Source: Octopus vulgaris
Taxonomy: Eukaryota
DNA: 64,000 bases
Direction: 5' to 3'
NCBI GenBank assembly: GCA_951406725.2
Contig: OX597827.1
Span: forward strand, 71,982,001-72,046,000
This document shows, in pieces, positions 812-36,374 of this stretch (positions are counted from its first letter, which is position 1; each line of letters begins with the position of its first letter). The position numbers and the translations under genes were made by a program. The notes beneath the pieces are model-generated. The model saw nothing but the letters and a program-made list of their open reading frames with translations. It was not told where the DNA came from and searched no databases.

Positions 812-910
812 TCATTTAAGTTTTAACCGTATTGCATTACGTGGAATAGCAAAAGGTTGCGAAGCCACCTGAGTTGTTGGACTGGTCAGTTCGGGAACAT
901 CATACATGGA
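812..910 (-). CDS. PAPOLA: PAP terminal coding exon (SMYDVPELTSPTTQVASQPFAIPRNAIRLKLK*)
   Basis: Long pyrimidine tract plus cttgcAG|, phase 0, TGA at 814-812; resembles the vertebrate end LSDIPALPANPIPVIKNSIKLRLNR. Confidence 0.9.
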   Translation of the reverse strand, partial: SMYDVPELTSPTTQVASQPFAIPRNAIRLKLK

Positions 911-2301: not shown

Positions 2302-2403
2302 TTCATCATTTTCTTTCAGCTGTTTTGGAGGTGAATCGTTAAGTAATGGAGACTGTGAACGCTTCTTTGGATTGCTGGGTGGAGAATTCAAATCAGGAGC
2401 ACT
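2302..2403 (-). CDS. PAPOLA: PAP repeat exon R6 (SAPDLNSPPSNPKKRSQSPLLNDSPPKQLKENDE)
   Basis: 102 nt, phase 0/0, cttgcAG| ... |GTAAGT. Confidence 0.85.
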
Positions 2404-2594
2404 CTGCAAGAGACAATACATATGACTGGTCAGCTAGAAGAAAATTTTGAATCAAAGGCCTATGTGATCTCTTTTTAGACGTCCGTTCCAACCATTTATA
2501 ACATTAAACTATATATACATTTATAATTATCTAATAAATACAACAGAATCTCATAGCTGTATATACAACAACTTTCTGTTACCTATATATATAT

Positions 2595-2728
2595 ATGGAC
2601 CTTAAGTAATGCATATGTAAAATTTGAATGAAATCGATTGGGTAATTCTCGAGTTTTAGGGATTCACACAGACAGACAAACCCAACCGATTTCATTCAAA
2701 TTTTACATATGCATTACTTAAGGCCCAT
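2595..2728. repeat. Inverted repeat, about 49-bp arms
   Basis: atggaccttaagtaatgcatatgtaaaatttgaatgaaatcgattgggt and its near-perfect reverse complement at 2680-2728. Confidence 0.85.
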
Positions 2729-3214
2729 GGAGTGTCATGGGCCCAAAAAATTTTTCAACTTCTTGCCTAATGCAGAATTTTTCTGTTACTTCCTTCTGTA
2801 GAAATACACTTTTTGGTTCACAATGTATATTGTAAATTATGAATAATTTAGTAAGCTGATATTTGAAACAAATTAACACGAAGATTTAATGGGATGTTTT
2901 GATTTAGGTCGCTTGAAAACAAGAAGCTTATACAGGAGAACCAAGAGTCATTTTGGACAGGTTGGTATTAAAATAGTTAAATTTAACTAACTAAAAACTG
3001 TAGCAACAAACAGAACCTCATATATGATTAAAATATAACCATTTTTTGTCCCCAACCCATGCTAACATAGAAAGGGGTCATTAAATGTTGACAACAATTT
3101 TATAAGGAATAACAACAAACAGGCTCTCATTCATATGTATGTATATTGTTCTTTGTATCTTCTATCTGAATGTTTTGCGTTCTTGTCCCATTTTGTATTT
3201 TTATATATATATAT

Positions 3215-3435
3215 CATCATCGTTTAACGTCCGCTTTCCATGCTGGCATGGATTGGACGGTTTGACTGAGGGCTGGCAAGCCAGAAGGCTGCACCAGGCT
3301 CCAATCTGATCTGGCAAAATTTCTACAGCTGGATGCCCTTCCTAACACCAACCACTCCGAGAGTGTAATGGGTGCTTTTCGTGTGCCACCAGCACGAGGA
3401 CCAGTCAGGTGGTACTGGCATCAACCATGCTTGAA
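3215..3435 (-). mobile_element. SINE-like repeat (GGAAGGGCATCCAGCTGTAGAAA core, (ATG)n tail)
   Basis: Same element at about 19490, 23265, 26205, 32420-32910, 34130-34395, 37780 and 43085. Confidence 0.85.
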
Positions 3436-4865
3436 TGGTGCTTTTTACGTACCACCAGCACAGGACCAGTCTGCCAGCACTGGCATCAATCACACTCGAA
3501 TGGTGCTTTTTATGTGCCACCAGCACAGGACCAGTCTGCCAGCACTGGCATCAATCACACTCGAATGGTGCTTTTTATGTGCCACCAGCACAGGACCAGT
3601 CTGCCAGCACTGGCATCAATCACACTCGAATGGTGCTTTTTATGTGCCACCAGTACAGGACCAGTCTGCCAGCACTGGCATCAATCACACTCGAATGGTG
3701 CTTTTTATGTGCCACCAGCACAGGACCAGTCTGCCAGCACGGGCATCAATCACACTCGAATGGTGCTTTTTATGTGCCACCAGCACAGGACCAGTCTGCC
3801 AGCACTGGCATCAATCACACTCGAATGGTGCTTTTTATGTGCCACCAGCACAGGACCAGTCTGCCAGCACTGGCATCAATCACACTCGAATGGTGCTTTT
3901 TATGTGCCACCAGCACAGGACCAGTCTGCCAGCACTGGCATCAATCACACTCGAATGGTGCTTTTTATGTGCCACCAGCACAGGACCAGTCTGCCAGCAC
4001 TGGCATCAATCACACTCGAATGGTGCTTTTTATGTGCCACCAGTACAGGACCAGTCTGCCAGCACTGGCATCAATCACACTCGAATGGTGCTTTTTATGT
4101 GCCACCAGCACAGGACCAGTCTGCCAGCACTGGCATCAATCACACTCGAATGGTGCTTTTTATGTGCCACCAGCACAGGACCAGTCTGCCAGCACTGGCA
4201 TCAATCACACTCGAATGGTGCTTTTTATGTGCCACCAGCACAGGACCAGTCTGCCAGCACTGGCATCAATCACACTCGAATGGTGCTTTTTATGTGCCAC
4301 CAGCACAGGACCAGTCTGCCAGCACTGGCATCAATCACACTCGAATGGTGCTTTTTATGTGCCACCAGCACAGGACCAGTCTGCCAGCACTGGCATCAAT
4401 CACACTCGAATGGTGCTTTTTATGTGCCACCAGCACAGGACCAGTCTGCCAGCACTGGCATCAATCACACTCGAATGGTGCTTTTTATGTGCCACCAGCA
4501 CAGGACCAGTCTGCCAGCACTGGCATCAATCACACTCGAATGGTGCTTTTTATGTGCCACCAGCACAGGACCAGTCTGCCAGCACTGGCATCAATCACAC
4601 TCGAATGGTGCTTTTTATGTGCCACCAGCACAGGACCAGTCTGCCAGCACTGGCATCAATCACACTCGAATGGTGCTTTTTATGTGCCACCAGCACAGGA
4701 CCAGTCTGCCAGCACTGGCATCAATCACACTCGAATGGTGCTTTTTATGTGCCACCAGCACAGGACCAGTCTGCCAGCACTGGCATCAATCACACTCGAA
4801 TGGTGCTTTTTATGTGCCACCAGCACAGGACCAGTCTGCCAGCACTGGCACTGACCACACTCCAA
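3436..4865. repeat. Minisatellite, 22 x 65 bp, nearly identical units
   Basis: Unit tggtgctttttatgtgccaccagcacaggaccagtctgccagcactggcatcaatcacactcgaa recurs at 3436, 3501, 3566 ... 4801. Confidence 0.98.
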
Positions 4866-4881
4866 TGGTGCTTCTTAATTA

Positions 4882-4930
<49 letters not shown>

Positions 4931-4938
<8 letters not shown>

Positions 4939-5380
4939 ATATTTCTGAATGGTCATATTGTCAGTTTAGCCAATAAAAACACACGCACTATATATTTGGT
5001 GTTATTTTGCTTCAGTGATATTTATTTTTTACATTAATCTTAATCTTATTTCGGCCAAAGTTCTTTCGTCACACTCCTGTGACCGCATCAGTGGTCCTTT
5101 GTTTTCTTCTCACTTACTTGTGTCTCTCCTTACTAACCGTCAGCCATTTTGTATTTCTATTGTATGGCTGACGGTTAGTAAGGAGAGACACAAGTAAGTG
5201 AGAAGAAAACAAAGGACCACTGATGCGGTCACAGGAGTGTGACGAAAGAACTTTGGCCGAAATAAGATTAAGATTAATGTAAAAAATAAATATCACTGAA
5301 GCAAAATAACACCAAATATATAGTGCGTGTGTTTTTATTGGCTAAACTGGCAATATGACCATTCCGAAATATAACAATAT
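4931..5380. mobile_element. Long palindrome (217-bp arms, 16-nt loop), probably an inverted Penelope-like pseudo-LTR in a (TA)n tract
   Basis: 4931-5147 is the reverse complement of 5164-5380 with 2 mismatches; (TA)n on both sides; contains a hammerhead-like motif. The palindrome is certain, the family is inferred. Confidence 0.8.
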
Positions 5381-5434
5381 CTGTTTCAACACACGACTTC
5401 ACATAAAAAATCTTGCACAACAAATATTTAAACG

Positions 5435-5469
<35 letters not shown>

Positions 5470-5737
5470 GTAATCAGTTATAACAATCATATTCTCATTG
5501 AAATAATTAAAATGCAACTTATAGCTATAACAACAAACAGGTTGTCCTATATATCTAATTAAACATAACAAATCTAACAACAAACAGAATTTCCATCTGG
5601 CATAAACTAATTAGAAGCTATGCATGTTAATCCATGAATTATGAAATTAGTATGCAATTAAAACTGTGCTCGTCTTCAGCAAGAAATTTAACAGACAAAG
5701 GCAAGAATGATGATGATGATGAAAAAAAAAACGTTAC

Positions 5738-5836
5738 TTCTTTTTCTTTCATCTGTTTTGGAGGTGAATCATTAAGTAATGGTGACTGTGAACGCTTCTT
5801 GGGATTGTTGGGCGACGAATTCGTATCAGGAGCACT
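5738..5836 (-). CDS. PAPOLA: PAP repeat exon R5 (SAPDTNSSPNNPKKRSQSPLLNDSPPKQMKEKE)
   Basis: 99 nt, phase 0/0, cttgcAG| ... |GTAACG. Confidence 0.85.
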
Positions 5837-6059
5837 CTGCAAGAAACAAACAGATATTACATGTAAAGCGACCCAAAGCAGCACGTTGTGCTCTTAACCA
5901 GTTCTGCTTATTTAAAAAGATTTTCAAAAGTAAAATAAAGTGTAAAATCATTTTAAATAAGTGAAACCGGTTAAGTTAATAAATACTTTTAAAAGACTAC
6001 TGCTTTTTCAGATTCTTTTCCTTATATTTTTACTTTTGCAGTAACCCCCAACCCTACTT

Positions 6060-6113
<54 letters not shown>

Positions 6114-6854
6114 AAAAAATACAAACTGGGACAAGAACACAAAACATTTAGAAGACGATACAAAAAACAAGGACGGGACATTCGAAGCCTTCAATCTTCA
6201 GTCAAGAACCGGATCATCCTAGCAATTTCATTATATATATATATATCAAGGTACAGTGTGGTTGTGTGGTTAAGAAATTTGCTTCTCAATCACAATGCTC
6301 TGAATTCAGTCCCACTGCATGGCACCTTAGGCAAGTGTCTTCCCCTATAGCTTTGAGCCAACCAAGGCCTTAAGACAGAAACTCAAAGAAGCCTGTCATG
6401 TGTGTGGGTGTGTCTGTGTGTCCCCTTAATAGTTGTAATTTTGTGTCAGTGTCCCATAAGCTATACAATTCTTTTCCAATGTTCTGCAAAACCATGTTTG
6501 ACCATGTTCAGTTGGTAACAGGTAAGGATTGGCAACAGTAAGTGCCTCCAGCTGTAAAACAAAATCTGCCTCAACAACCTACACCCAACCCAAGCAGGCA
6601 TGGAAACGTGGATGTTAAAACTTACGCACTGAATAAGCCCTATCAACTAATAGATTCCCATTTTTAATATCAAATCGTAACAGCTCACTGTCTCTGCCCC
6701 AAGCCAATGAGGGAGCTTCTATGCACTGCTAGAAATAGCAAAACAGATCTCCCTCATATGCGTGGTTACCTGTCTAGGTGATAGTGTTACAAGACTAGAA
6801 ACTGGAGAAGTTTATTGCTGTTAGTATACAACAGTAGTTCACAGCCATTTTTTA

Positions 6855-7047
6855 TCTATTCCTTTACTTGTTTCAGTCATTTGACTGCGGCCATGCTGGA
6901 GCACCGCCTTTAGTCGAGCAAATCGACCCCGGGACTTATTCTTTGTTAAGCCCAGTACTTATTCTATCGGTCTCTTTTACCGAACCGCTAAGTGACGTAA
7001 ACACACCAGCATCGGTTGTCAAGCAATGCTAGGGGGGACAAACACAG

Positions 7048-7094
<47 letters not shown>

Positions 7095-7260
7095 TACGAC
7101 AGGCTTCTTTCAGTTTCCGTCTACCAAATCCACTCACAAAGCATTGGTAGGCCCGGGGCTATAGCAGAAGACACTTGCCCAAGATGCCACGCAGTGGGAC
7201 TGAACCCGGAACCATGTGGTTGGTTAGCAAGCTACTTACCACACAGCCGCTACTGCGCCT
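6855..7260 (-). mobile_element. tRNA-derived SINE (CORE-like CTTGGGCAAGTGTCTTC, internal TA/TG microsatellite)
   Basis: Full-length copy; homologous to copies at 11400, 47700, 52050, 55023, 59680, 61500 and 62095. Confidence 0.88.
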
Positions 7261-7516
7261 ATGGACCCTTTTGTTTATTATTTTATTCTGGTGAACCCCT
7301 ATAGCCACTCAATGTTTACAAACTAATTTTACAGATACTCCTTTCAAAATTCTTATTTGGTGATTGTATGTCACAGCTTAAAATCCCAACCATAGCATGA
7401 CCCCCACAATCAAATACACGAGCCCTTTAGATATCTCTTCCAAGTTTGTGCCGTCAATACAAAGATCTTGAAGACTGCTGAGAGATATAAAATATATTAA
7501 ATAAAACATTACTTAC

Positions 7517-7615
7517 TTCACTTTCTTTTATCTTTTTGGGGGTCAAATCATTATGAAGAGGTGATCTTGAGCGTTTTCGTGAACTGTTCGGTGAACAATT
7601 TGAATCAGGGACACT
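7517..7615 (-). CDS. PAPOLA: PAP repeat exon R4 (SVPDSNCSPNSSRKRSRSPLHNDLTPKKIKKSE)
   Basis: 99 nt, phase 0/0, cttctAG| ... |GTAAGT. Confidence 0.85.
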
Positions 7616-8724
7616 CTAGAAGAAGGAACACAGTACATGTAACAATGAAACATTTAGGATTTTTGAGGGATTTTCTGAAGTAAACAATACTGCCACCCAG
7701 TTCAATACAACTTCCTAAAAATCTTTGTGTTTTCTTTTTATTCTTAACTAAAACAGCAGCACCCCACCTTTCTCTCTCTCTCTCTTTGAGTCAATGTAGA
7801 GGAGTTACACTTGATGAAATCTCCAAGTGGTTCAAATGCCCAACTCTTGATAGCCAAGTGGCTAAAAAGCATCAGCAGAAGAGCATTCAGGAATCATGAC
7901 CTGGATGCAGCGCAGCCCACATACAGTGTAAGAAGTTAAGGGCCAAGACACTTGCCTGAGAGGGATTTCTTCTCTGAAGACCTTCTGATGTTCAGCTCTC
8001 GAGAGTTGTGCGTGTGTGTGTGTGTGCATACATTAATTCATACACATATTTCTTTCCCTTCTTTTGCTGGTTTCAGTCATAGGACACCCACTTAAATACC
8101 TTTAGCTGATTATATCGGGCCCCAATACTAATTTATTGAATTTGAAAAGAGAAAGGCAAAGTCTACCTGGACATAAAACAAACTAATCAAATACCATAAG
8201 GTATTTTTGATTAATGTTCATCTAACAGTGCTGCCTTCTGATTATGCATGCACACACACAAAGAATATATTTAACTTATTTTAATAATGGTCTATGGCCA
8301 TGCTGGGGCACCATCGTGAAGACTAGTCAAACAAATTGAACTTATTTTTTAAATATTGTACTGATTCTATTGGTCATTTTTGCCAAACCACCAAGTTATA
8401 AGGACATAAACAAACCAACATTGGTTGTCTAGCAATGGAGGAAGTGTGAGAAACACAAATCAAAGACCAAAATCAAGGCTGTGACCCAGCACGGATGCAG
8501 TCTAATGACTGAAACAAGTAAAAGGAAAAAAGATAGGGGTCCTTCCCAGGCTGTGGGGATTTGAAAAGATAATGACAATGTGTTTGAATGCTTACATTAT
8601 ATGCTACGTAGACATGGATGCTTGAAAAAACTAAGAGACATCATACTTCAACACTTCAAGATCAAATCTGATATGGCATATAATCAAACAACCTTTATGT
8701 TTTTTTAATTTTTTATTTACTCAC

Positions 8725-8823
8725 TTCATTTTCTTTCATCTGTTTTGGAGGTGAATCATTAAGTACTGGTGACTGTGAACGCTTCATTGCATTGTTGGGT
8801 GAAGAATTCAAATCAGGAACATT
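8725..8823 (-). CDS. PAPOLA: PAP repeat exon R3 (NVPDLNSSPNNAMKRSQSPVLNDSPPKQMKENE)
   Basis: 99 nt, phase 0/0, cttccAG| ... |GTGAGT. Confidence 0.85.
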
Positions 8824-9370
8824 CTGGAAGGAACAACAGACATCAATGGTCAACAAGGTGAATTTCTTTATTAAAAGACATTGAATCCAATGCTTGGTTT
8901 AATACTATTACCTGGTCCCTTAAGTGCTTTTTATTCAAGAGGGAAAAGGGGCAGTGTCCATGACCGTTTACATAGCCTCTGAGATTGACGGGATGGAGGG
9001 AAGAAGCTATCCTCAAACCAGAGGCCTGGCTGGAAGAAACTGGTGGATGACTAAGTCTATCAGGCAAGTAGAGCGCGGTGGAATTTAAAGTCAGAACACA
9101 AAGAGATGGAAAGAAATACTGTAAGATGTCTGGTTTGATTTCCTTAGCTCTACCAATCTACCGTCTTGGACTGATAGAACTATTTTTCATGTCACTCTCA
9201 AAGGGATAAAAGGCAGAGTTGAACTATCAGCACAAACAGTTATAATAAATACCACAGAGCATCCTGTCCCACCCCAACAACTCTACCAGTTCAATGCCAT
9301 TAATAGGAGATATCAAAAAATCTTGGAATTCAGATATTTTATTGAGTAAAATAGGTTTTTTTTTTTTTAA

Positions 9371-9664
9371 ACCAACTCCATGAAATTGCTGCCCCTAATT
9401 CTCTCATAAGTGGAGGTGCATGGCTTAATGGTCAGAATTGTGATCAGAAAATTTATCATCATCATTGTTTAACGTCCACATTCCATGCTAGCATGGGTTG
9501 GTCAGTTTGAGTGACGACTGGCAAGCCATTCAACCCATGCTAGCATGGAAAGCGGACGTCAAATGACGGATGATGGTAATGAATCTTCTGATCATAATTC
9601 TAACCACTAAGCAAAGCACCTCCACTTATGAGAGAATTAGGGGCAGCAATCTCAAGGGGTTGGT
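9371..9664. repeat. Fold-back inverted duplication, about 130-bp arms
   Basis: attgctgcccctaattctctcataagtggaggtgc...catgggttg versus caacccatg...gcacctccacttatgagagaattaggggcagcaat. Confidence 0.85.
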
Positions 9665-10321
9665 AGAAAAAAAATAATATAAAACTGTGGTTTCGATTCC
9701 TGGACCAGGTGATGTATTGAATTCTTGAGCAAAACACTTCCTTTCACATTGCCCCAGTCCACTCAGCCGGTAAAAATGAGTAATCCTGCAATAGACTGGC
9801 ATCTTGTCCCAGGGAGGAATATCAACACCAGAGAAACCAGGAAACCCGCCTGATGTTCCTTACGGAGTAATGTGGATTGACCAATTCTATCATACAAAAC
9901 AGTATGTTTTGAAGTTTTCATGATTATATTACAACCTTCCATCAAGATTTTTATGTAACAACTTTTTGTTGTGTTCAAAACCTAATAATAATAATTACAG
10001 AGCTATCTACTTTATTGAATTTCTTCAAATTCTTGATTCTTTTTGAAATTAACTGAAACACTGGTAGCAGAATTCCCTTCAAATCATCATTTAACATCCA
10101 CTTTCCTATGCTTGCATAGGTCGGATGGAATTCACAGAGACAGCAGGTGTTCTATGGCTGGATGCCCTTCCTGTCACCAACTCTCACCTGTTCCCAAGCA
10201 AAGTAATGTGCTTTCCCCAGAAGACTGGAGACAAACAACCTCGTTTCTACGACGATGAAGTTAATTTACAACCATTGTATGATGTCTAACGAAGGATTCA
10301 CACAAACACACACCCACATGT

Positions 10322-10625
10322 GGAGGCACATGGCCTAGTGGTTAGAGCAGCGGACTTGCGGTCAAGGGATCGCAGGTTCAAATCTCAGACTGGGCAATGT
10401 GTGTGTTTATGAGCGAAACACCTAAGCTCCACGCAGCTCCGGCAGAAGGTAATGGCGAACTTCTGCTGACTCTTTCGCCACAACTTTCTCTCACTCTTTC
10501 CTCCTGCATCTTGCAGCTCACCTGCAACACACTGGCATCTCATCCAGGTGGGGAACCTATACACCAAGGAAACCGGGAAACCAGCCCTTATGAGCCAGGC
10601 GTGGCTCGAGAAGGAACAAACAATA
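10322..10625 (+). mobile_element. tRNA(Arg-like)-headed SINE, third family
   Basis: GGAGGCACATGGCCTAGTGGTTAGAGCAGCGGACTTGCGGTC...GGTTCAAATC head, then body and (AAC)-like tail. Confidence 0.8.
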
Positions 10626-11399
10626 TATATATATACATGTGACAATTCCAGTTTCTGTCTACGAAATCCACTGGCAAAGCTTTGGGCAACCCAGGGCTCT
10701 TTAGTAGATGACACTTGCCCAAGGTAACATGCAGTGGTTGGAAAGCAAAAATCGTAACCACACAGCAATAAAAGAGCTAAAAGTTGGTAGATTGCGAGAA
10801 ACAGTAAAGCAACAGACAAAATGCCTTGCAGTGTTTAATCATGTTGTTCAAATTGAGTTCAGATCCTGCAGGAACAGAGCTTTAATTTCATTCATCCATC
10901 CATTATCACCAAACGTCCATTTTCCAAGCTGGCATGGGTTAGATGGTGTGACAGGAGATGACCACCTGAAGTGCTGTGCAGGGTTCACTGTCTATTTTGA
11001 CATGGTTTCTATGGCTGGATGCCCTTCCTAGCACCAAACACTTTACAGTGTGTACTGGGTGCTTTTTACATGGCATCAGCACTTACGAGCCCACAAAATT
11101 AGGGATGCTCAGCTAGAGAGGGATGCAGGGGACACGCCTGTATGCAAGGGCAACCATACTTAGCTTGGTGGTAAGCACAGCAAACCACCAGGGATCCCAA
11201 GCCCTTGTCACCACATCTGAATAATTAAAAACTGCAACCTTCCTAAATGTGTGTAGCCTTGAACCAATGGAAGAAATATATTTCAAATTCTTATTAATTT
11301 ATAAAAAGACATTCAATTTATTAGGTAACCTTTACATGGCCACTTGGTGCTGGAAACAGCAGTCAAATCATCCTGAAATGAAAGGACATGTAATTTCTT

Positions 11400-11770
11400 A
11401 GGCACAGGTGTAGCTGTGTGGTAAGAAGCTTGCTTCCCAACCACATAGTTCTGGGTTCAGTCCAACTGCATGGCACCTTGGGTAAGTGTCTTCTACTAAA
11501 GCCTCAAGCTGACCAAAGCATTGTGAGTGGATCTGGTAGGCAGAAACTGAAAGAAGCCCATTGTATTTGTGTATGTGTGTGTGTGTGTATATATATCTGT
11601 TCCTCCCATCACCACTTGACAACCAGTGTTGGTGTGTTTACAACCCTGTAACTTAGTGGTTCAGCAAAAGAGACTAATAGGATAAGTACGAGGCTTAAAA
11701 AATAAGTCCTGGGGTCAAGTTGTTCAACTAAGACCTTCCAAGGCAGTGCTCCAGCATAGCCACAATAAAA
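11400..11770 (+). mobile_element. CORE-like tRNA SINE copy
   Basis: Homologous to 6855-7260 in the opposite orientation. Confidence 0.85.
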
Positions 11771-11968
11771 GAGTAATGTAGTCTTGTATATACCAAACTA
11801 GAAGGGCAGTGGCAGCTGAAATGTCTTTGATGCTTGACCAGGACTGACTGTTGAATAGAAGACCTCCCACCCCTTTAAAATAATTCCTTTCAAGTTTGCA
11901 CCTTCTAAACCTATTGTTCTCAGAGAATACTGAGAAATATTAAAGATATTAAATAAAACATTACTTAC

Positions 11969-12067
11969 TTCACTTTCTTTTATCTTTTTAGGGGTCAAAT
12001 CATTATGTAGAGGTGACCTTGAGCGTTTTCGTGAACTGTTCGGTGAACAATTTGAATCAGGAATACT
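11969..12067 (-). CDS. PAPOLA: PAP repeat exon R2 (SIPDSNCSPNSSRKRSRSPLHNDLTPKKIKESE)
   Basis: 99 nt, phase 0/0, cttgcAG| ... |GTAAGT. Confidence 0.85.
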
Positions 12068-14407: not shown

Positions 14408-14509
14408 ATCTTCATCTTCTCCTGTAGTTTTGGAGGTTGAATCATTATGTTGAGGAGATCGTATGCGTTTTCGTGAACTGTTTAGGGAACAATTCAAATC
14501 AGGAGTACT
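14408..14509 (-). CDS. PAPOLA: PAP repeat exon R1 (STPDLNCSLNSSRKRIRSPQHNDSTSKTTGEDED)
   Basis: 102 nt, phase 0/0, tttcAG| ... |GTAAAT; paralogous to R2-R6 and the most diverged. Confidence 0.78.
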
Positions 14510-18011: not shown

Positions 18012-18368
18012 CTGACTGTCTTTAGCCTCAGATTCCGAAGTTTCGTTCTCAACAGCATTTGAGTCATCACTAGCTCCAGATATTGAATTGCACTGGTCAG
18101 AAAGTTTGTTGGTCTCTTTTATGGCGCCAGCACCATTTGGTAGAGAGCAAGCACCACTACTGTTGGCTAGATTCGAAGCTGTTGAACAGTCCAAGTCAAC
18201 CATGTCCTGGCTCGAATCCTCCAAACTGTCAATCGAAGTGTTTTGGCGTGTCACTTCCGTTTCCGTCCGACAGTTGGAAAGACCACCATTGACGGCAGTT
18301 TTAGTTGGTGTGGTGGTACTACTTGTTGAAGAAGTATTTAAACTAGTGTTTCCTTGGTATTTCCCTTC
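18012..18368 (-). CDS. PAPOLA: PAP Ser/Thr-rich C-terminal exon (EGKYQGNTSLNTSSTSSTTTPTK...SESEAKDSQ)
   Basis: 357 nt open, phase 0/0, ttttacAG| ... CAG|GTGAGT; low-complexity S/T-rich sequence as expected for the PAP tail. Confidence 0.88.
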
Positions 18369-20017: not shown

Positions 20018-20096
20018 ACTAGAAGTTTTCCTTCGGTCTTTATTTAATTTTCCCCTGTTTAACACATCTTTTGGTAAGTATTGGTCTAGCTGTTTC
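20018..20096 (-). CDS. PAPOLA: PAP exon, NLS1 region (KQLDQYLPKDVLNRGKLNKDRRKTSS)
   Basis: 79 nt, ccAG| ... |GTAAGT; homologous to RKQLHQLLP...KKKK. Confidence 0.92.
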
Positions 20097-21554: not shown

Positions 21555-21624
21555 CTCTTTACGTGCTTTATATCAATTGTCATATCCTCTTTGTACAGTT
21601 TTATTTGGACAGCCTGTTTGTAAA
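21555..21624 (-). CDS. PAPOLA: PAP exon (VYKQAVQIKLYKEDMTIDIKHVKR)
   Basis: 70 nt, ttttcAG| ... AG|GTAAGT; homologous to VYRQAINSKMFEVDMKIAAMHVKR. Confidence 0.93.
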
Positions 21625-22602
21625 CTGAAAACAACAACACCCCCTGTCAGTCAAGTCAAACAGAATTGCAAAATAATTGAAATTACACAAAAGAAAAATC
21701 AAACAGTTAATCCTATGACACAGACTCACAGATCCTTGGTCCTCGTTTCCAATTTTTCATGGGAACATGTCTGACCATGGGGAAACATTACCTGGCTTGG
21801 AAACAGGTGAAAATTTGCAACAACAAGGACATCTAGATGTAGAAAATCTGCTCCAACGAATTCCATCTGATGCATGCAAGCATGGAAAATTGATGTTTAA
21901 TAGACAGGCAGATTCAATGCAGTTCTCATCCTCAACCAGTTTTGCAGTATGCTGTATGGAGGTAAACATGGACAGCCTTTCCATGTCTGCTCTGGGTAGC
22001 AAAATTTTTCTATAGACTGTTTCTATGGACTTCACTAGAAGGGGGGGGGTTACCATTTTTTTTAAATAAGAAGAGGTTGTTGCTAGTTCATAGCTCAACA
22101 ATCTTTTATTAATCCAGGCCCAAGACTGGCTGGTATCCACATTTAGATAGCAATAAATGGAAATTGCTGGTTCTCAGAAAAGGAACCAGGGTTTGGGTGA
22201 GGGTTATTTCTTTTATTAACACTGGAAGGATGAAAAGCCAAATTAACCTCCACAGGATTTGAACACAGAAGACAAACAGCCAGAATGAATACTGCAAGGC
22301 ACTTTGCTCTGTGCATTAGTCCTGCTAATTGATCAACAACAGAGATCAGTAGCTGCTTTTTCAATACACTTAGCTTTATTCCCAACAGGACACAAAAAGG
22401 TCGTGCTATAGGTCCTGATCATTAATTAACCAAGAGTCTTTGCTTTACAACAAACACGTAGCAGCCAATATGCAGTAAAACTATATATTATCATTACCAA
22501 CAGAGAGAGCAGTTAGCTTTTTCTATCATCTTCACTCATACATATATGAGAGAAAGAGAGAAATATGTTGTACCATTTTGCGTTAGTTTGGATTATAATA
22601 CC

Positions 22603-22639
<37 letters not shown>

Positions 22640-22816
22640 TATATATCTATGTGTGTATATCTATTTATATATTTATCCATGTATGTATGGATATATATAT
22701 ATATATAAGCTCAACCAGCCAGTGTGATACTGGCGATATCATTTGCAGTACCTATCACCTGGCTGGCTGGCAGAACTTAAAACATGAAACAAATGAAAAA
22801 ATTAGAATCAACTTAC

Positions 22817-22920
22817 CAATATCTATGAAACCTTGAATATCATGAGTCAGGTCTACATTTATGGTTTCAAACTTATTAAAATCCAAACCAATGAACCACT
22901 GGCACATATATTTATCCTCA
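22817..22920 (-). CDS. PAPOLA: PAP exon (SEDKYMCQWFIGLDFNKFETINVDLTHDIQGFIDI)
   Basis: 104 nt, ttttcAG| ... G|GTAAGT; WxIGL...VDLTxDIQ motif. Confidence 0.95.
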
Positions 22921-25129
22921 CTGAAAACAAGGCAGAGAAAAAGAAAACATTTCAAAAAAGAGAAGGAAAAATATGCTATAACCATCACCTGGTAACAATA
23001 AGATATTCTATTTTCAAACCTTAAGTACCAAATATTTTACTTCAGCAACAATTATCTTGGCCCCCTATCACACACACATTTGAATAATTTGAATTTAGTC
23101 AGAACCAGCTTAGTTGCAAAATGGTGAAATAAAATTACATTGCAGGGACCAAGATCGCAATCACTTTTCTTTTTATTAGAAATTAGAGTGAGACTAGCAG
23201 AAAAATCTATGTGCAAAGATAAATTGAAGGCCAACAAAGCAGTAGATTTATATATATATCCTCATCACCATCATTTAATGTCCATTTTCCATGCTAGCAT
23301 GGGTTGGACAGTTCAACCGGGGTCTGGAGGCTGCGCCAGGCTCCAGTCTGATCTGGCAGTGTTTCTACAGCTGGATGCCCTTCCTAACACCAACCACTCC
23401 GTGAGTGTAGTGGGTGCTTTTTACATGCCACAGGCACAGGGGCCAGAGGAGGCTGGCAACGACCACGATCGGCTGGTGCTTTTTATGTGCCACCGGCACG
23501 GAAGCCAGCCAAGGCAGCACTGGCATTTGCCATGTTCGGATGGTGCTTTTTACGTGCCACCGGCACTGGTATCACAACAACAATTTCCATTTGATTTTTA
23601 TTTTGATGTACTTGACTCAATAGGTCTCCTAGGTAGACTACAATTGATACATACATATACGGATTTAATTACGATAGAATTGTCCAATCTAAAACATATC
23701 TTAATACATTCGGAATATAAAGAGATAGAAATATAAAAATATATGAATGCTAAAACTATGCATGGGAGCATTCCTTGGAAGTGAACCGTAAGATTCACAT
23801 GTACTCTTTGAATATACTCTAGAAATGGTTGTCAGAATACTCTATTTCCTTTAAATATGGTACTAAAAACTCTTTTTAAACATCTATTACTCCCCCCATT
23901 CCATAATTTATTTTGTTTTTTTTTCATATTTCATTATTTTTATCTATACTCTATTATATTTATATATCTATATATTTATTTGTCCATGCATATTTTTAGC
24001 ATTCACACATTTATATATTTCTATATCTTTATATTCTGAATGTATTAATATGTGTTTTAGATTGGACAACTATCATAATTAAATCCATATATGTATGTAT
24101 CAATCGTAGTCTGCCTGATTTGAACCTCTTCTCTCTATCTCTCATACTTGTCTGGTGTCTCGGGTCTGACTCAAGCACTTCTATGCTTTCTATACTTTTC
24201 AAAAGAAAATTATAATTACACACACACACACACACGTGCTACTTGAACCACAAGTGGTGAGTCAAGAGAGTTTGGCAGTCGCTGGTTGATAGCTATACAA
24301 AATGAGCTTTTCACAAGATGATTCATAATCCATGCAATCAAATACAGTCAACATCATGACTGACTAATTTAATTACTTCAAGGTGATGAACCAACAAAAC
24401 TAGCTCTGCACGGTCACTGGAGCTGTTAGAAATAGCACAGATATTTCTTGCAAAGCCCAACCTGCTACCATCTTAGATAATGTAATTCTACATACATCTA
24501 AAATGATAGGATTGTCATGGTTGGAAGGTTTGTGTTATAAGTGTGCTCATTCAGTGTTGACCTGAGGTTCATTCGTAAAAACTACCAGGTTTAGCATGTA
24601 CTGTCATGCCCTTATCTGAATTACGTGAAGGCCATCGTCTTGTAACATTTCATGATGAATAGAATGCAGAGATACACAGCTACAAAAATTATCTTGGGTC
24701 TTGTCCGCCAGTGTCAGACAGGTCAATGGTGATAAATATCTACTAGAATGAACAGTTGTCTAGACAGAATTCAGAAAAGTCCAACTTATTAGCAAACCCT
24801 TTTTAATACCAAATTACCTCAGTCAGCTTCTAGGTCTATGCTACAAAACCAACTATTTTAAAGTAATATTCTTAGCCTTTTTGTTTTTATTTTCTGACAT
24901 TGCCATGTGATGTTTGAGTGCCACTGGGAGTCTGCTCAGTTGAAAGTATCCAGGCCAGCCTGCCCGCCCACTTTCTACCCTAGATCTCAGAAGCTTTGCT
25001 ATCAGAAACAAACTACAACTTTGCATCATAATTTTATGTAAGGACTTTTCATTTAGGTATGTTCTGAAAACCAGGTTAAAATACCAATCATTGACTTCTG
25101 TAAAATGATCCAACAAATATCAGCTTAAT

Positions 25130-25171
<42 letters not shown>

Positions 25172-25172
<1 letters not shown>

Positions 25173-25402
25173 TTTTTTATTGCCCACAAGGGGCTAAACA
25201 TAGAAGGGACAAACAAGGACAGACAAACAGATTAAGTCGATTACATCAACCCCAGTGCGAAACTGGTACTTTATTTATCGACCCCGAAAGGATGAAAGGC
25301 AAAGTCGGCCTCGTCGGAATTTGAACTCAGAACGTAACGACAGACGAAATACTGCTAAGCATTTCGCACAACGCGCTAACGTGTCTGCCAGCTCGCTGCC
25401 TT
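25172..25402 (-). mobile_element. Nin/Deu-like SINE in a (TA)n tract
   Basis: Homologous to 1869-2099. Confidence 0.88.
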
Positions 25403-25480
25403 TATATATATATATATATTTATACACACACACACATACATACAAACATTGACAAAAAAATAAGAGAAATGAAATCTTAC

Positions 25481-25591
25481 CTTTCGTTTAATGGCTTGAA
25501 AGCTTCAGGATTGACATGGGCAATTTTTATGTACCTATTCCTTTCTAGATTGCCTACTAACAAACGAATTTTTGACTCAATGTAACCATGC
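25481..25591 (-). CDS. PAPOLA: PAP exon, RNA-binding domain (HGYIESKIRLLVGNLERNRYIKIAHVNPEAFKPLNE)
   Basis: 111 nt, tcAG| ... AG|GTAAGA; ESKIR.LVG.LE motif. Confidence 0.95.
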
Positions 25592-26822
25592 CTGAAATGA
25601 AATCCAACAAGCTTTGCTAATTAAGCTAATTATGAACAGCTGAAAAACAAAAGCTGCATTTGGCAAACTAAATAAAAAGAAAAGATAATGATAAATTTCA
25701 TAGGAACTTTGAAATGAGGCAATAATTTTCCATATCTACTTCAGGTTAGTCTACTTAATGATATTATCATGAACATCTCTGAATTTTAACCTCCTGAAAA
25801 TTTTGTAAACAAAAATGCCTGCGATAAGATATAAAGATTTGAGAGCAAAATGAAGTTCAACGCAAAATGTACTTGGTCATAGTAATCATAATAAAATTAA
25901 TTCAGATTTTATATTTAATTGGCACAAGATAAATCTTTTGGGAAGGCCACTGAGAATGTACAATATACAGCACTGTATTTTTTTTCTAAGGCCATTTTCT
26001 GCAGTGAATGTAACAAAGGGGCCTCAACTAAGTTGCAAAAGATTATTTTTCAATCTCTTACAGATAGTGAAACTATATATAAACTACACTGATCTTACCC
26101 AAGCTGAGAAATTAGCAGAGTCCCCTTATTTAGTTCTTAGCCACTGCTATCTCCAATGCCAATTTGATGAAAAGGGCCATAAAGCTCCTCGTGTTAAATA
26201 TTCATCATCATCATCATTTAGCGTCCGCTTTCCATGCTAGCATGAGTTGGACAGTTCAACTGGGGTCTGGGAAGCCAGAAGGCTGCACCAGGCCCAGTCT
26301 GATCTGGCAATGTTTCTACGGCTGGATGCCCTTCCTAACGCCAACCACTCTGTGAGTGTAGTGAGTGCTTTTTACATGCTTTTTAAATATTTTTTTTTTT
26401 TTTTTTTATTTTACAAGTTTCAGTCATTGGATTCTTACCATACTGGAGCACTGTAAATATTCAGCTGCTGATAATCAATGCCAATGCTTATTTCATTGAT
26501 TATGGGAGAGAAAGGCCAAGCCGACTTGGGTGTAAAAGGACACAATAAAACAAGGCATGTTTGTTCCATGCTCTACCAAATCTTCCATCCAATACCAGCA
26601 TTTCCATCTCTCAAAATTCCAATAACATGTCTTTGATCAACCCAAGACACTTGCCAAACAGGCTGTGATTGAACCCAGAATGGCACAGACGCACAAAGCA
26701 AACCACAAATGAGCCCACCCACCCACAACCATCACAACCAAAGTATCTTGGCTGAAATACATCGAGAAGACAGGATAAAAATATAAAAGAATATAAAAAA
26801 ACCATGTAAAAGAATCCCTTAC

Positions 26823-26876
26823 CATTCTAAGTAATGCATGTCTGTTTCTGCTCGTGCTATAACAACAATGTAATGT
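26823..26876 (-). CDS. PAPOLA: PAP exon (RHYIVVIARAETDMHYLEW)
   Basis: 54 nt, tttcAG| ... TG|GTAAGG; homologous to KHYIVLLASAPTEKQRLEW. Confidence 0.94.
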
Positions 26877-27774
26877 CTGAAAGAAATCAAAAGAGAGATA
26901 AATGACATCAATGCCATGAAAAGACAGAATTCATTCATTCATAAATTAACATAATACATAAATATATAATTGACATATATGATTAGCATAATATATGGAT
27001 GCATAAAGATTAGGTCGGATAAGCTAGAAAGACAGGATATTCAAAGAAATAAGAAACGTTAGCAGCCCAGGCAAAACGCTTAGCGAGGATAACAAACACT
27101 GCAGTACTAGAAAAGTTGAAGTCCAAAGACACCGGTTGTTGAGAACTGAATCCACATAACTTTCACATTTTGGACACGAGTCACTGTCCAAGATTATTAT
27201 TTAACAAGAGGTGTTGAAAGGAAGAGAACAAGAAGATGTCAAAGACATTTGTGAACTGAAGAATTGATGACCTCAAAGAAGAGTTTGGCTGAATGCACAA
27301 AGCCCATAAGCAGAGGTGAGTAACTGATGCTAGCTTTTTTTCTTTAATAAAATTTGTGATCAAAACAACTGTCTTGGACTTCCTCTGAAAGGTCAGCAGA
27401 AAATAGTTTCAGGATGACATGCTCATCACACACCTAGCTTATTGATTAGACATCTTTCAAGAGATGAGTAAGTTAATTCATTTTTACAAGGAAACATTTC
27501 TTCCATTGTCAATATCCAAGATATGATGAATGCCTTGTTTCAACAAATGAATCTTTAGCAGAAGCCAGCCAACATCAAAAATATTGCTATGGTTACCAGG
27601 ATAGACCAATTTCTTCATAAGTTCAGGTGATAAACAATTGTGTAGAGTGGTAAATGTGAGAGGCCTGTCCAATGCATACCAACACGGAACAATGAATATA
27701 AAATGACAACAGTATCCTTGGCAACTTAATGAACAGTGAAACATAAACCCAACTTTGTTAGGAATGACTCCTAC

Positions 27775-27859
27775 CTGTATTTTTGAAAAAATGGTGCTGG
27801 TTCAAATAATTTACTCCAATCCTCTTTGTTTTCCAAGATTCGAGACACAACTTCCAAAC
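27775..27859 (-). CDS. PAPOLA: PAP exon (GLEVVSRILENKEDWSKLFEPAPFFQKY)
   Basis: 85 nt, tcAG| ... AG|GTAGGA. Confidence 0.95.
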
Positions 27860-28414
27860 CTGAGAAATATTTAATTAGAAATTAATTTTTTGAAATTTTT
27901 GCTTGTATCTGTAAATTTTCATCAAAACAGATGTAACTTATAGATAAATTGAAATATATTTATGGATAATCATTAACTGTAAAATTAAAACAATAGAGAT
28001 AAAGGAATATATATATATTTCCAATTCTAAGAAAAGAAAAAACTTCTAGGATATTTCAAATTATGCCATTATTTTCAAGATGGGGTGCACACTGCACTGG
28101 TAGGGTATATTAATTTGGTAGGGGATGAGTTACTTCAGAATAAATATAAAAAGTACATCATCAACTTAACAATAGTGCTTTGTTTTAAGAAGGAGCAGAG
28201 TTTACAACCAAATTTTTTTTTAAATACTACAGTAATTCTTTGAAAATGATAAATGAATGAGGCTTTAAACAAGCTTCATCCTTTAACATACAAGCATTCC
28301 AGTAACATACAATGGTTAACAACAATTCCTTCAGCTTCTATAAAACCCCTCGTGGAATCTTAACATTCTTTTGAAATAAGGAATCACAATCAAAGAAATG
28401 CTTAGAGAGATTCA

Positions 28415-28573
<159 letters not shown>

Positions 28574-29438
28574 TTACATTGTATATTGTAAAGAACATTG
28601 TAAAAAGTAATTAATTGCTTGAGATATTTGAGTAGTCTGTCATACTTTAAACCTTTCATCACATGGCAAAACCAAAGCCCCCGATGCTATCCCCAACTCA
28701 GTTGAAAAGTCTTGAGTTATTTGGTTGTCACATTAGTGCCAGTGCCATACAAAAAGCACCCAGTGTGCCCACCCGATGAAGTAGTTGACATTAGGAAGGT
28801 GATCCAGCCAAAGAAACCGTGCCAAAGCACACAATGGAGCTTGGCACAATCCTCTGGATCATTAGTTCCTGTCAAGTGATCTAACCCAGGCCAGAATGGA
28901 ACATATATGACAATTAAGTCTATCCCCACAAATGGGTCATTGCAGGATTTGAGCTCAGATCACAAAGAGTTGGGACAAATGTAAACAAGGTATCCTGTCC
29001 AATGTTCTAACACTTCCACCACTGTACTGCCCAGGATTAGCATTTTTCTTTTTCTTTTTTTAAATTTAACTTTGAAGGGATTTGGACTCAGAGTAGAGAG
29101 TCAGAACACTACAAGGCATTTTGTCTGATGCTCCAATGACTAATTTTTCTGAGAAATAACTAGGATTTATCACAAATTGTACATATACAATCTACCAAAT
29201 TGACTCTTATGGCTGTGATCAGTCTGGGGGTATAGTAGACACTTGTCCAAGGAGGTGAAGCGGGATTGAACCAAAGACCAAGTAATTGAGAAACCGGTTT
29301 CTTAACCACACGGCCACATTATGTCATGCACCAAGTCTAACAATGAAGACATCAATGTTAAACACATACAAAATATTAATATTACTTGATGAAAAGGTTT
29401 ACATTATTAAAACAAACAATAGTAGATTTGCTACTCAC

Positions 29439-29514
29439 CCTTGGGTCCCAAACAGTGAAACCCAGTTTGTTTTCTGGTTCCAAATGTTTCAATAGTACAG
29501 GTTGAGGCCAACTC
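29439..29514 (-). CDS. PAPOLA: PAP exon (SWPQPVLLKHLEPENKLGFTVWDPR)
   Basis: 76 nt, ccAG|G AGT TGG ... AGG|GTGAGT. Confidence 0.96.
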
Positions 29515-30379
29515 CTGGAAACAAAGTCATTTTTACTGATTACTAATGATCGGTGGAGACAAAATGTAAAAATCCAAACAAAGAAAATGTGAAAATTACA
29601 AATTGTTGATTTATGAGAGGAAGAACAGATTCCTTTTTGATTAGAACCCAAACACTGCAGGGTTTAAAAAACAATGTGAAATCCATACACAAAGGTACTG
29701 CTACCTTTTGTGACCATATTACTAATAAAATACATTACATTTCAATTATCAAGATCAATAAATAACTCTAAGGGAATTACTAAATAAAATTACTAACTTT
29801 TTACATTATTAAACTAGCATTGGAATTTCAGTTTTTCTCATAAAATTACAACAAAAGACTTTAATTAGGTATAAAATTAAGCAGGCTGGTATCTAAAGGG
29901 TTGTTTAAGTGAAATAGCTTTACCCAAATACAGAACCTTGTTCATTGGAAGTATATCTTTTACTTCAGATCTACTGAGAACTTATTATATATGCATCATT
30001 CTATGACACAAAAGAAATTCATTTTCTTTTAAATACTGAAAAAGCACAATATAAAATATAGTATTTAATTCTCATTCTTAGAGTAAAAACTTGAAATTCC
30101 AGCTCTCTTTATCATGGCTGCCAAAGTAATGTGGGGTGGAGATGAGATAATCAGAGACCAAACAGAGCATTGTGGTCTTGCGAACTAAATGGCAACCTCA
30201 TTAATGTTGGTGGAATATAAAAAGCACCCAGTACTCATTGTAAAGTGGTTGGCATTAGGAAGGGCATCCAGCTACAGAAGCGATGCCAAAGCAGACACTG
30301 GAGCACAATGCAGATCAGAGTCAAACTCTTTAACCCACACCAGCATGGATATAGGCATTAAATGATGAAAGAAAATTCA

Positions 30380-30658
<279 letters not shown>

Positions 30659-30673
30659 TTAAAACAATATATA

Positions 30674-30905
30674 TTTCCTTATTACCCACAAGGGGCTAAA
30701 CATAGAGGGGACAAACAAGGACAGACAAAACGGATTAAGTCGATTACATTGACCCCAGTGCGTAACTGGTACTTAATTTATCAACCCCGAAAGGATGAAA
30801 GGCAAAGTCGACCTCGGCGGAATTTGAACCCAGAACGTAACGGCAGACGAAATACGGCTACGCATTTCGCCCGGCGTGCTAACGTTTCTGCCAGCTCGCC
30901 ACCTT
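30674..30905 (-). mobile_element. Nin/Deu-like SINE, young and CpG-rich
   Basis: Full length; lies inside the 17-bp TSD atgattaaaacaatata (30655-30671, 30967-30983) together with a 5' extension. Confidence 0.9.
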
Positions 30906-30909
30906 ATTT

Positions 30910-30966
30910 TTAGTTCACGCGGATAGCCGTGCTCTTCATCGACGGACGAGCTGAGTGATACCCCGT
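30910..30966 (-). pseudogene. 5.8S rRNA 5' fragment fused to the SINE 5' end
   Basis: Minus strand reads ACGGGGTATCACTCAGCTCGTCCGTCGATGAAGAGCACGGCTATCCGCGTGAACTAA, collinear without gaps with metazoan 5.8S GCGGTGGATCACTCGGCTCGTGCGTCGATGAAGAGCGCAGCCAGCTGCGTGAACTAA (recalled). Confidence 0.8.
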
Positions 30967-31020
30967 ATGATTAAAACAATATAAACATGGAAATGCTGAC
31001 AGCAATGACGATATGACAAG

Positions 31021-31227
31021 GGATGCCGAAAAGTTCCTGGCTTTAAGGGTATCGCAAAAGAACTGGTTGAAGGCCCAACCTTCTGGGTTCTTTTACATGG
31101 CTTAGAAAAACAAGGATCACTGCAATAAGTGTGTGAATCTGAGAGTGGGATATGTTGGATAGAATCATAATTAACTGATCCTCCTGTATTTTCTTTTACC
31201 CAAAGCCAGGGACTTTGCAGTACCCCC
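31021..31227. mobile_element. Tc1/mariner-type MITE
   Basis: Imperfect TIRs ggatgccgaaaagttcctggcttt / aaagccagggactttgcagtacccc. Confidence 0.65.
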
Positions 31228-31494
31228 TCATAATTTGCAATGAATAGATGGTCAGTTGTTTATCTTTTATCTGCTTCAGTCATTACACTATGGCCATGCT
31301 GGGGCACCACACTGAAAAATTTTAGTCAAATGAATCAACCCCAGTGCTTCTTTCTTTTTAAAAGCCTGGTGTACTTATTCTATAACCTTTTGCCAAACCG
31401 CTAAGGTACAAGAATGTAAACACACCGACACCGGTTATCAAATGGTGGTGATGGGACAAACACACACAATTTTCTATCAGTTTCCACACATTTA

Positions 31495-31662
<168 letters not shown>

Positions 31663-31709
31663 TTAAATATGTAAACATTTTAAATTAGTAAACAGCAACA
31701 ATAATCAAA

Positions 31710-32106
31710 TCTCTCTATATATATAAAGCTGAAGTTGTCTGTGTATGGCAGGTTTGGTAGCCTTCAACTAATACTATCTCCTCCGAGACCCTGCGGCGCA
31801 AGTTGACCAAAATTGAGAGTATGATAGAAGAAGGCTGGCTCTTCCTTCCGTAGAAGAAAAAATTCAAATCAGACCATGTTAACACCAAAAATTATTTACA
31901 TCAAAAAGGTGCTTTTTTTTTTCTATGAAAATCCCTATTTTTTATGATTTTTTTACTGCTGTGTCGCCATTTTCCGGTGTATTTCAACCAGAAAAATGTT
32001 CACTTAAAGAGAATAACAAGCTACATAATGCAAAATTTTTACTTTTCAAAAATTCCAATTCTAAAGGGTCGAAACAAACCTGAGCAATGCCGAGCGATGC
32101 TGCTAG
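31710..32106 (+). mobile_element. Non-autonomous Helitron
   Basis: A|TC 5' end (tctctctatatatataaag), subterminal hairpin-like cctgagcaatgccgagcg, CTAG|T 3' end. Confidence 0.8.
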
Positions 32107-32968
32107 TTTACAAATATAGTTATTCCGATAATTAATGTAGAGTGACCACTGAAGCATAAAAGAGAAAGAGACAGCAAAACTAATATGATTATAGCGACAT
32201 ACTGAAGCGAAACTCATTCAGATAAATCAAACAATCTGCTGTATCCCACAATTTTTGTTTAGGTTTAGAAGACCAATAGCAACAAAAATAAAATTTTGAA
32301 TCAGTAGGTGCACTCCATAGTAACAAGTGAGTTTAAACAATATACAGAGTTGGAAATATTGAAATAACTGCAAGTCAAACTGATAATGCAGATAAATTCA
32401 CACAACACGTAAAAATCACCAGCCTCGCCTGGCCCCCGTGCCGGTGGCACGTAAAAGCACCATCCATTCGTGGCCGTTTGCCAGCTCCATCTGGCACCTG
32501 TGCGGGTGGCACGTAAAAAGCACCCACTATACTCACGGAGTGGTTGGCGTTAGGAAGGGCATCCAGCCATAGAAACACTGCCAGATGAGACTGGGCCTGA
32601 TGCAGCCTTCCGGCTTCACAGACCCCAGTTGAACTGTCCAACCCATGCTAGCTTGGAAAGTGGACGCTAAATGATGATGATGATGATGATCGTGGACGTT
32701 GCCAGCCTCCTCTGGCCCCTGTGCCGGTGGCATGTAAAAAGCACCCACTACACTCACAGAGTGGTTGGCATTAGGAAGGGCATCCAGCTGTAGAAACACT
32801 GCCAGATCAGACTGGTGCCTGGTGCAGCCTCCTGGCTTCCCAGGCCCCAGTCGAACCGTCCAACCCATGCTTGCATGGAAAAAGGACGTTAAACGATGAT
32901 GATGATGATGCTGATATGAAGACAGGCAGGCACAACAAGGAAAACACGACATAATATGAACGATGTTA

Positions 32969-33091
<123 letters not shown>

Positions 33092-34421: not shown

Positions 34422-34475
34422 CTCAATTCCATCAAATACCATTTTTAAAACAGGAACATATGCTTCCTCCACAGC
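34422..34475 (-). CDS. PAPOLA: PAP exon (AVEEAYVPVLKMVFDGIE)
   Basis: 54 nt, ttAG| ... GAG|GTTTGT; homologous to AVEEAFVPVIKLCFDGIE. Confidence 0.95.
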
Positions 34476-36323: not shown

Positions 36324-36374
36324 TACTGCTTGTAATATAATGCTTTCTAATGTATTGCTAGATTGCTTTACATA

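Follow-up and report, generated by a model that had tools for sequence, protein, structure and literature searches.

Six tandem tail exons of an octopus poly(A) polymerase repeat a conserved module of putative phosphorylation sites, with a bipartite nuclear localisation signal consensus in two of the copies

What does it mean for an enzyme when one exon of its tail is present six times over? The question is raised by a 64,000-nucleotide stretch of Octopus vulgaris DNA (contig OX597827.1, positions 71,982,001 to 72,046,000; hereafter the window), which contains an intact poly(A) polymerase (PAP) gene of 24 coding exons on the minus strand, six of which are repeats in the part that encodes the C-terminal tail. 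The original prediction was that each of these exons multiplies a module equivalent to the second nuclear localisation signal (NLS2) of vertebrate PAP and its sites for cyclin-dependent kinases (CDKs), so that copy number would set both the strength of nuclear import and the threshold of inhibition by phosphorylation. The precedent comes from vertebrates, where PAP-alpha moves to the cytoplasm once NLS2 is inactivated, and PAP activity falls when cdc2/cyclin B hyperphosphorylates the enzyme in M phase (PMC10908868, PMC2241896, PMC6309179). Our answer is narrower. The octopus array is a variant of a known regulatory module, in which the enzyme, the type of motif, and exon duplication are all familiar, and we consider it probable, with real room for doubt, that a CDK-gated NLS exon was duplicated and partly specialised into phosphosite-only copies, the dose of which can be varied by splicing.

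The repeat exons are 99 or 102 nt long, all in phase 0-0, with an AG acceptor, a GT donor, and no stop codon. They fall into two sequence types, A and B, arranged along the transcript as R1, B, A, B, A, A:

14408..14509, minus strand: R1, a decayed B-like copy of 102 nt that keeps the first basic cluster and R-x-x-S-P
11969..12067, minus strand: R2, type B, 99 nt, with the bipartite NLS consensus and a full CDK site (TPKK) immediately preceding the major basic cluster
8725..8823, minus strand: R3, type A, 99 nt, with three S-P sites, one of them a full CDK consensus, and no NLS consensus
7517..7615, minus strand: R4, type B, 99 nt, 95% identical to R2 in nucleotides (four synonymous differences and one non-synonymous)
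5738..5836, minus strand: R5, type A, 99 nt, with the weakest donor of the array (GTAACG)
2302..2403, minus strand: R6, type A, 102 nt, an open phase 0-0 exon

The five copies at 2302-12067 had been placed correctly, on the minus strand and in frame with an intact PAP reading frame; the sixth, at 14509-14408, had been overlooked. This is the copy that has lost the second basic cluster and the full CDK site. The peptide string proposed for type B is exact in both B exons; that for type A, presented as uniform, is exact only in 5836-5738, the copy at 8823-8725 beginning with MKR and that at 2403-2302 finishing with QLK. The resemblance of R2 and R4 extends into the introns, over about 40 nt on the upstream side and 40-80 nt on the downstream side, and the two are therefore either the youngest pair or a homogenised one. 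An assembly artefact can be ruled out, for the copies are 62-95% identical in DNA, the introns between them (1.1-3.5 kb) differ in length and have in common only exon flanks and apparent dispersed repeats, and the array recurs in proteins of Octopus bimaculoides and Argonauta. Public protein predictions already include the repeats; a scan of two of the exons matched no Pfam family.

Every copy being in phase 0-0, skipping one keeps the frame, and the resulting isoforms differ in the number of sites. Two predicted isoforms of O. bimaculoides behave in this way, X4 being without R1 and X3 without R5, and these are the two repeat exons whose donors (GTAAAT in R1) depart from GTRAGT. Two features of the introns may be recorded here. 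A GAA-rich low-complexity tract (13528-13975), pyrimidine-rich on the transcribed strand, lies between R1 and R2 and could affect the splicing of both. The intron between R5 and R6 contains a 65-bp minisatellite (3371-4877; 23 copies, 98% identity), whose left edge belongs to a dispersed repeat found many times in the window.

Where does the repeated unit come from? A search with the O. bimaculoides PAP protein listed 120 matches, and our comparison set consists of the 56 named non-cephalopod proteins among them, plus three shorter isoforms; records without a name, most of the redundant isoforms, and many PAP-gamma entries from teleosts were left aside. A profile of the module built from 53 pattern-selected windows in 43 of the 56 proteins, with no cephalopod sequence, recovers all six window repeats, in order, in the tail. 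Type B scores highest (23.7 bits for both copies), followed by type A (17.3, 12.9, and 14.4) and R1 (11.0). Shuffled sequences reached the observed score in none of 500 trials for each of R2 to R6 and in one of 500 for R1, which rules out a chance motif in sequence rich in S, K, P, and R. The module thus recovered consists of a basic pair, an S-P, a CDK-type site, and a second basic cluster. The same elements stand out in an alignment of 36 invertebrate PAPs that were not selected for the motif: its only invariant tail columns are K640, R641 (the basic pair), and K653 (the first lysine of the second cluster), with S644 and P645 (the S-P) conserved in at least 90% of the sequences. The module is found in molluscs, annelids, nemerteans, a brachiopod, and vertebrate PAP-gamma, and by these comparisons it is the best-conserved tail element of invertebrate PAPs and PAP-gamma. 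The predicted alignment of the repeats to a single-copy tail module of other animals is in this respect confirmed.

At a threshold of 15 bits, the module is single in 40 of the 56 proteins, double in 6, triple in 2, and absent from 8, counts that are partly circular for the 43 proteins used in training. The double copies belong to Mytilus, three oysters, Ptychodera, and a Poecilia PAP-gamma, and the triple ones to Crassostrea gigas and Crassostrea virginica; with eight of the 56 proteins carrying two or three copies, multiplication specific to octopus is excluded. A gastropod also appears to supply the single-copy exon that the prediction presupposed, in the form of a 36-residue cassette with precisely this module, by which isoforms X1 and X2 of Gigantopelta differ. 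Predicted isoform pairs of Ostrea and Saccostrea likewise differ by a 42-residue cassette with one module, and cassettes of both lengths, known from isoform differences only, finish a few residues past the second cluster, as the octopus exons do. The closest parallel to the array is found in pteriomorph bivalves (Mytilus, Ostrea, Saccostrea, Crassostrea), whose tails carry two or three tandem copies and whose predicted isoforms skip the 42-residue cassette; they differ from octopus in having a longer unit, S/T-P at P-1 rather than P0, and fewer copies. Gastropods and most other bivalves are single-copy, which indicates separate duplications in bivalves and octopus. Tandem repetition of another kind occurs in the predicted PAP of Solemya, which finishes in about five 21-residue repeats unrelated to the module and possibly due to a gene-model error.

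The correspondence with vertebrates lies in the enzyme family and the tail position, the C-terminal region of vertebrate PAP-alpha and PAP-gamma holding NLS2 and CDK sites, and in the alternative splicing of the last exons of PAP-alpha (PMC6309179). The motif of the octopus module itself is carried by the PAP-gamma tails of shark, coelacanth, teleosts, and mammals, every vertebrate match to the module being either a PAP-gamma or an unassigned protein whose tail is gamma-like. Among the 120 matches listed there was no named PAPOLA tail, solved PAP structures stop near residue 514, and the PAPOLA peptide quoted in the original prediction was not found as a string in searchable papers; the link to NLS2 proper would accordingly run through tail position, the PAP-gamma paralog, and that quoted peptide. 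Octopus departs from the vertebrate condition, for which PAP-gamma was the protein aligned, in that the exon is present six times in tandem rather than once, its copies are of two sequence types, and the equivalent of the first signal (NLS1) is non-canonical.

Do all copies of the module still encode an import signal? Three NLS patterns were applied, the bipartite one being KR, a linker of 10-12 residues, and K-[KR]-x-[KR]. Only R2 and R4 satisfy it; none of the four other copies does, R1 having just a monopartite-type KRIR, while type A fits no NLS pattern because its second cluster reads K-Q-x-K (KQMK or KQLK). The claim that every exon multiplies the NLS therefore fails for four of the six copies, type A having no proper second basic patch. 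K-[KR]-x-[KR] occurs five times in the 858-residue protein model, each time in R1, R2, or R4. The NLS1-equivalent (20096-20018) fails the bipartite pattern, as do all 34 lophotrochozoan proteins compared, whereas seven of nine vertebrate proteins pass, in a test that restricted the linker to 9-13 residues when several invertebrates have basic clusters slightly beyond. Since the core pattern is confined to the repeats and the NLS1-equivalent fails, the motif content suggests that the principal import signal of octopus PAP lies in the B exons. And since only two copies still resemble import signals, the array is more likely to modulate phosphorylation than to multiply the strength of import.

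The multiplication of CDK-type sites, in turn, is borne out. With the consensus S/T-P-x-K/R (PMC10908868), R2 to R6 each contain three S/T-P sites, one of them full, where two or three including a full one had been proposed; R1 has two minimal sites and no full one. The whole octopus tail holds 19 S/T-P sites, 6 of them full; the 56 other PAPs have medians of 6 and 1, respectively, and at most 14 S/T-P. Such numbers, together with the basic pair kept in the same five copies and a report that repression in vertebrates needs phosphorylation of both consensus and non-consensus sites (PMC2241896), are what one would expect if every copy were a functional NLS and CDK site, with copy number setting import strength and the M-phase threshold. 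We nevertheless hold this to be improbable: the A copies fail every NLS pattern, two of the three Argonauta A units score below zero on the module profile, and the full CDK site is lost from R3 of O. bimaculoides and from two of the five Argonauta copies.

In type B, the threonine of the CDK consensus is P0 of the major basic cluster. Of the pattern matches, 33 of 53 from non-cephalopods and 9 of 11 from cephalopods have S/T-P at P0 or P-1, two positions at which phosphorylation by CDK1 is reported to inhibit import (10.1101/043679, citing earlier work; PMC4588043). Type B resembles the composite motifs of CDK-regulated classical NLSs (Kosugi 2009 and Rona 2014, as cited in the same two papers) in having a full CDK site at P0. 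What differs is the setting, a spliceable array with NLS-deficient sister copies, for which import is here a prediction from sequence. The net charge of a unit is 0 to +3 (-1 in R1), and three phosphates would reverse a charge of 0 to +3.

One element of the module is common to all copies: R-x-x-S-P, of which the RSRSP that had been described as an addition of type B is thus a variant. Many other animals read R-P-x-S-P at this place, which is the optimal DYRK consensus. It might be, then, that what is conserved is a target of DYRK/CLK/HIPK-type kinases, or an SR-like surface through which PAP is coupled to splicing factors, and that import comes second; vertebrate PAP tails do bind U1A and U2AF65 (PMC6309179). 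We give this very little credence, because invariance is highest in the basic pair and the lysine that opens the second cluster, which are spaced as in an NLS, and because two arginine-serine (RS) dipeptides per B copy, and fewer in A, are far below the extended run of an RS domain. No SUMO consensus was found in any of the six repeats.

Are the copies maintained by selection, or simply tolerated? Three lines of evidence bear on this. First, R2 and R4 differ mainly at synonymous sites (proportions of synonymous and non-synonymous differences pS 0.18 and pN 0.01, Fisher p 0.008), in a test that depends on five differences, and the three A-A pairs (pN 0.09-0.12) have no significant synonymous excess. 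Second, five of the six differences from O. bimaculoides fall in the repeats and none in residues 1-510 (the window model has six substitutions relative to isoform X4 and five relative to X3). Third, Argonauta hians has five units in the same order as Octopus, B-A-B-A-A, and over 33 ungapped residues its B units share 29 and 30 identities with those of Octopus, its A units 13, 18, and 22. The idea of copy number as a finely held setting is not supported by these comparisons, because type-A copies in close relatives lose both the basic pair and the CDK consensus.

A largely neutral history of the A copies is accordingly a serious rival. Symmetric exons in a disordered tail would duplicate easily and be tolerated, one B copy doing the ancestral job and the rest being drifting filler. 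This would account for the concentration of differences in the repeats, the A-A pairs, the decay of R1 and of several copies in relatives, and a copy number that ranges from 0 to 3 across other animals. It fits less well with the conservation of both B copies between Octopus and Argonauta in an identical order of units, with the retention of splice sites and frame by six exons across introns of 1.1-3.5 kb, and with the S-P that follows the first cluster, present in every one of the 22 cephalopod units (those from outside the window having been chosen by that anchor). As an account of the whole array, mostly neutral accretion seems to us unlikely.

Relatives beyond the octopods add some detail. 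Two cephalopod-like proteins have two and three units, with A-like copies that are devoid of the motif; each comes from a contig of about 2.8 kb, a length that suggests a spliced transcript, which would make them the only transcript-level sign of expressed multi-unit tails. In an unrooted tree of 22 units of 33 residues, octopod units separate into A and B (bootstrap 97 and 92), and a bootstrap of 100 joins the two Argonauta B units. The latter are identical to each other at 32 of 33 positions, including residues not seen in the Octopus B units, and their pairing hints at concerted evolution, possibly by gene conversion between Argonauta B exons. The tree cannot settle whether the octopod and cephalopod-like arrays have a single origin. 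A search meant to widen the cephalopod sampling found no shorter proteins with this tail, two weak matches among 50%-identity representatives being left out.

The account we favour, a duplicated CDK-gated NLS exon with partly specialised copies, would run as follows. The tail of the ancestral animal PAP may have carried a single short, disordered module in the form of a bipartite classical NLS, with R-x-x-S-P in its linker and a CDK site immediately ahead of its major basic cluster. Tandem duplication of the symmetric exon encoding this module would have produced R1-B-A-B-A-A in octopods, and the copies would then have diverged. The two B copies may have stayed working CDK-gated signals, bound by importin-alpha when unphosphorylated, whereas CDK1 phosphorylation of the threonine just before KKIK would weaken that binding. 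Any function of the A copies, which have lost a basic residue of the major site, would be that of additional proline-directed phosphosites and spacers that raise the phosphate load of the tail in M phase, and exon skipping would vary the number of sites per isoform.

Several observations weigh against this account, or at least against its simplest form. In mouse oocytes, the activating phosphosites of PAP-alpha, S537/545/558, lie upstream of NLS2, and the 605-745 piece that contains NLS2 gave no phosphorylation shift (PMC8191758). The published record is more mixed than the original prediction supposed: cdc2/cyclin B lowers activity (PMC2241896), but phosphorylation of mammalian PAP-alpha by CDK1/ERK at S537/545/558 activates it (PMC8191758), and ERK phosphorylation of S537 raises activity, contrary to a simple threshold model (PMC2241896). 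A literature search found no mollusc data on inhibitory M-phase phosphorylation of PAP. Among the proteins compared, eight have no match to the module at 15 bits, some of them with short or partial tails; 20 of the 53 non-cephalopod modules have no adjacent S/T-P, so that the CDK gate is dispensable in many lineages; and the two cephalopod-like proteins keep the adjacent S/T-P in just one of three B-like copies. The NLS calls depend on regular-expression consensuses, which weak or long-linker signals would escape, and adjacent repeats could pair as an NLS across exon borders. The constraint on type B is measured from the few differences given above, and the isoforms of O. bimaculoides, Gigantopelta, Ostrea, and Saccostrea are database predictions. 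Finally, exon structure, homology, disorder, motif content, the unequal constraint on B and A, and cassettes in predicted isoforms are observed, and import, the identity of the kinase, inhibition, and any effect of dose are predictions from them and from vertebrate precedent.

A broader extension of the favoured account can be formulated. Animal PAPs could share a hitherto unrecognised, exon-encoded CDK-gated NLS module that was separately amplified in coleoid cephalopods, in mussels and oysters, in a hemichordate, and in a fish into a splice-tunable rheostat; octopod copies would have split into NLS-plus-priming units (B, with the threonine site) alternating with phosphosite-only units (A), and exon inclusion would set how much CDK activity it takes to silence PAP or let it go to the cytoplasm, where it could serve, e.g., cytoplasmic polyadenylation in oocytes or neurons. 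We think it improbable that all of this holds.

The array is of interest beyond octopus for what it says about PAP tails. Two papers portray the PAP tail as unconserved in sequence or as conserved in vertebrates only (PMC3287031, PMC10908868); the first, a phylogenetic comparison, regards the S/T-rich region as unconserved in sequence and the C-terminal domain as vertebrate-only. Even for mammals, the significance of divergent PAP C-termini has been called unclear (PMC6309179). A tail module whose conservation extends from molluscs and annelids to vertebrate PAP-gamma qualifies these descriptions. The natural variants, with 0 to 6 copies, form a ready series in which to relate the number of CDK sites to multisite inhibition of PAP, and the same series suits the question of whether phosphorylation next to an NLS controls where PAP works. 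Tandem exon duplication with alternative use of adjacent homologous exons is known (PMC8373072); in the cases described there one exon is substituted for another, whereas the predicted octopus isoforms include five of the six copies together. We found no published description of the octopus PAP exon array, in a search that mostly did not reach subscription papers and probably missed bracketed spellings.

It remains to describe the gene that carries the array. Twenty-three of its exons, from 39526 to 2302 on the minus strand, splice into a stop-free frame of 826 codons, and the last, at 910-812, supplies 32 residues and a stop to complete the 858-residue model. Outside the repeats, its features are:

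21555..39526, minus strand: coding exons 1-15, encoding the nucleotidyltransferase, central, and RNA-binding domains (amino acids 1-480) in an open spliced frame
20018..20096, minus strand: exon 16, matching vertebrate NLS1 in position, with the bipartite pattern not satisfied
18012..18368, minus strand: exon 17, an acidic S/T-rich linker of 119 amino acids with net charge -11 and one T-P-x-K site
812..910, minus strand: terminal coding exon, resembling the C-terminal end of other animal PAPs both in sequence and in where it lies

The model is nearly identical to the PAP of O. bimaculoides, as befits a very closely related Octopus species, and retains the aspartate triad (D108, D110, D162). 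Its O. bimaculoides homolog, identical to the window protein over amino acids 1-510, scores above cut-off for Pfam PAP_NTPase, PAP_central, and PAP_RNA-bind and matches the solved cores of PAP-gamma (4lt6, E 7e-215) and PAP-alpha. In a structure predicted from the alignment of the 36 named invertebrate PAPs, the predicted local distance difference test (pLDDT) score is below 50 across nearly all of residues 501-818; the repeats therefore sit in a disordered tail, S/T-rich as in canonical PAPs. By all these features, the gene is a canonical nuclear poly(A) polymerase of the PAPOLA/G type.

A few minor observations complete the picture of the locus. A stretch of exon 17 (18368-18012) resembles an 'HSKSDTEL'-type segment, conserved in many invertebrate PAP tails according to the alignment consensus, and is a candidate second conserved tail motif. 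The intron after coding exon 8 is of the GC-AG type, the frame being open only with the GC donor at 30488-30487 (minus strand). Rfam models gave no match to a structured RNA in the window. The start codon abuts a splice acceptor (39527-39526), and a non-coding first exon would therefore lie upstream; a compositionally distinct stretch at about 56.0-56.5 kb may be a candidate promoter or first exon.

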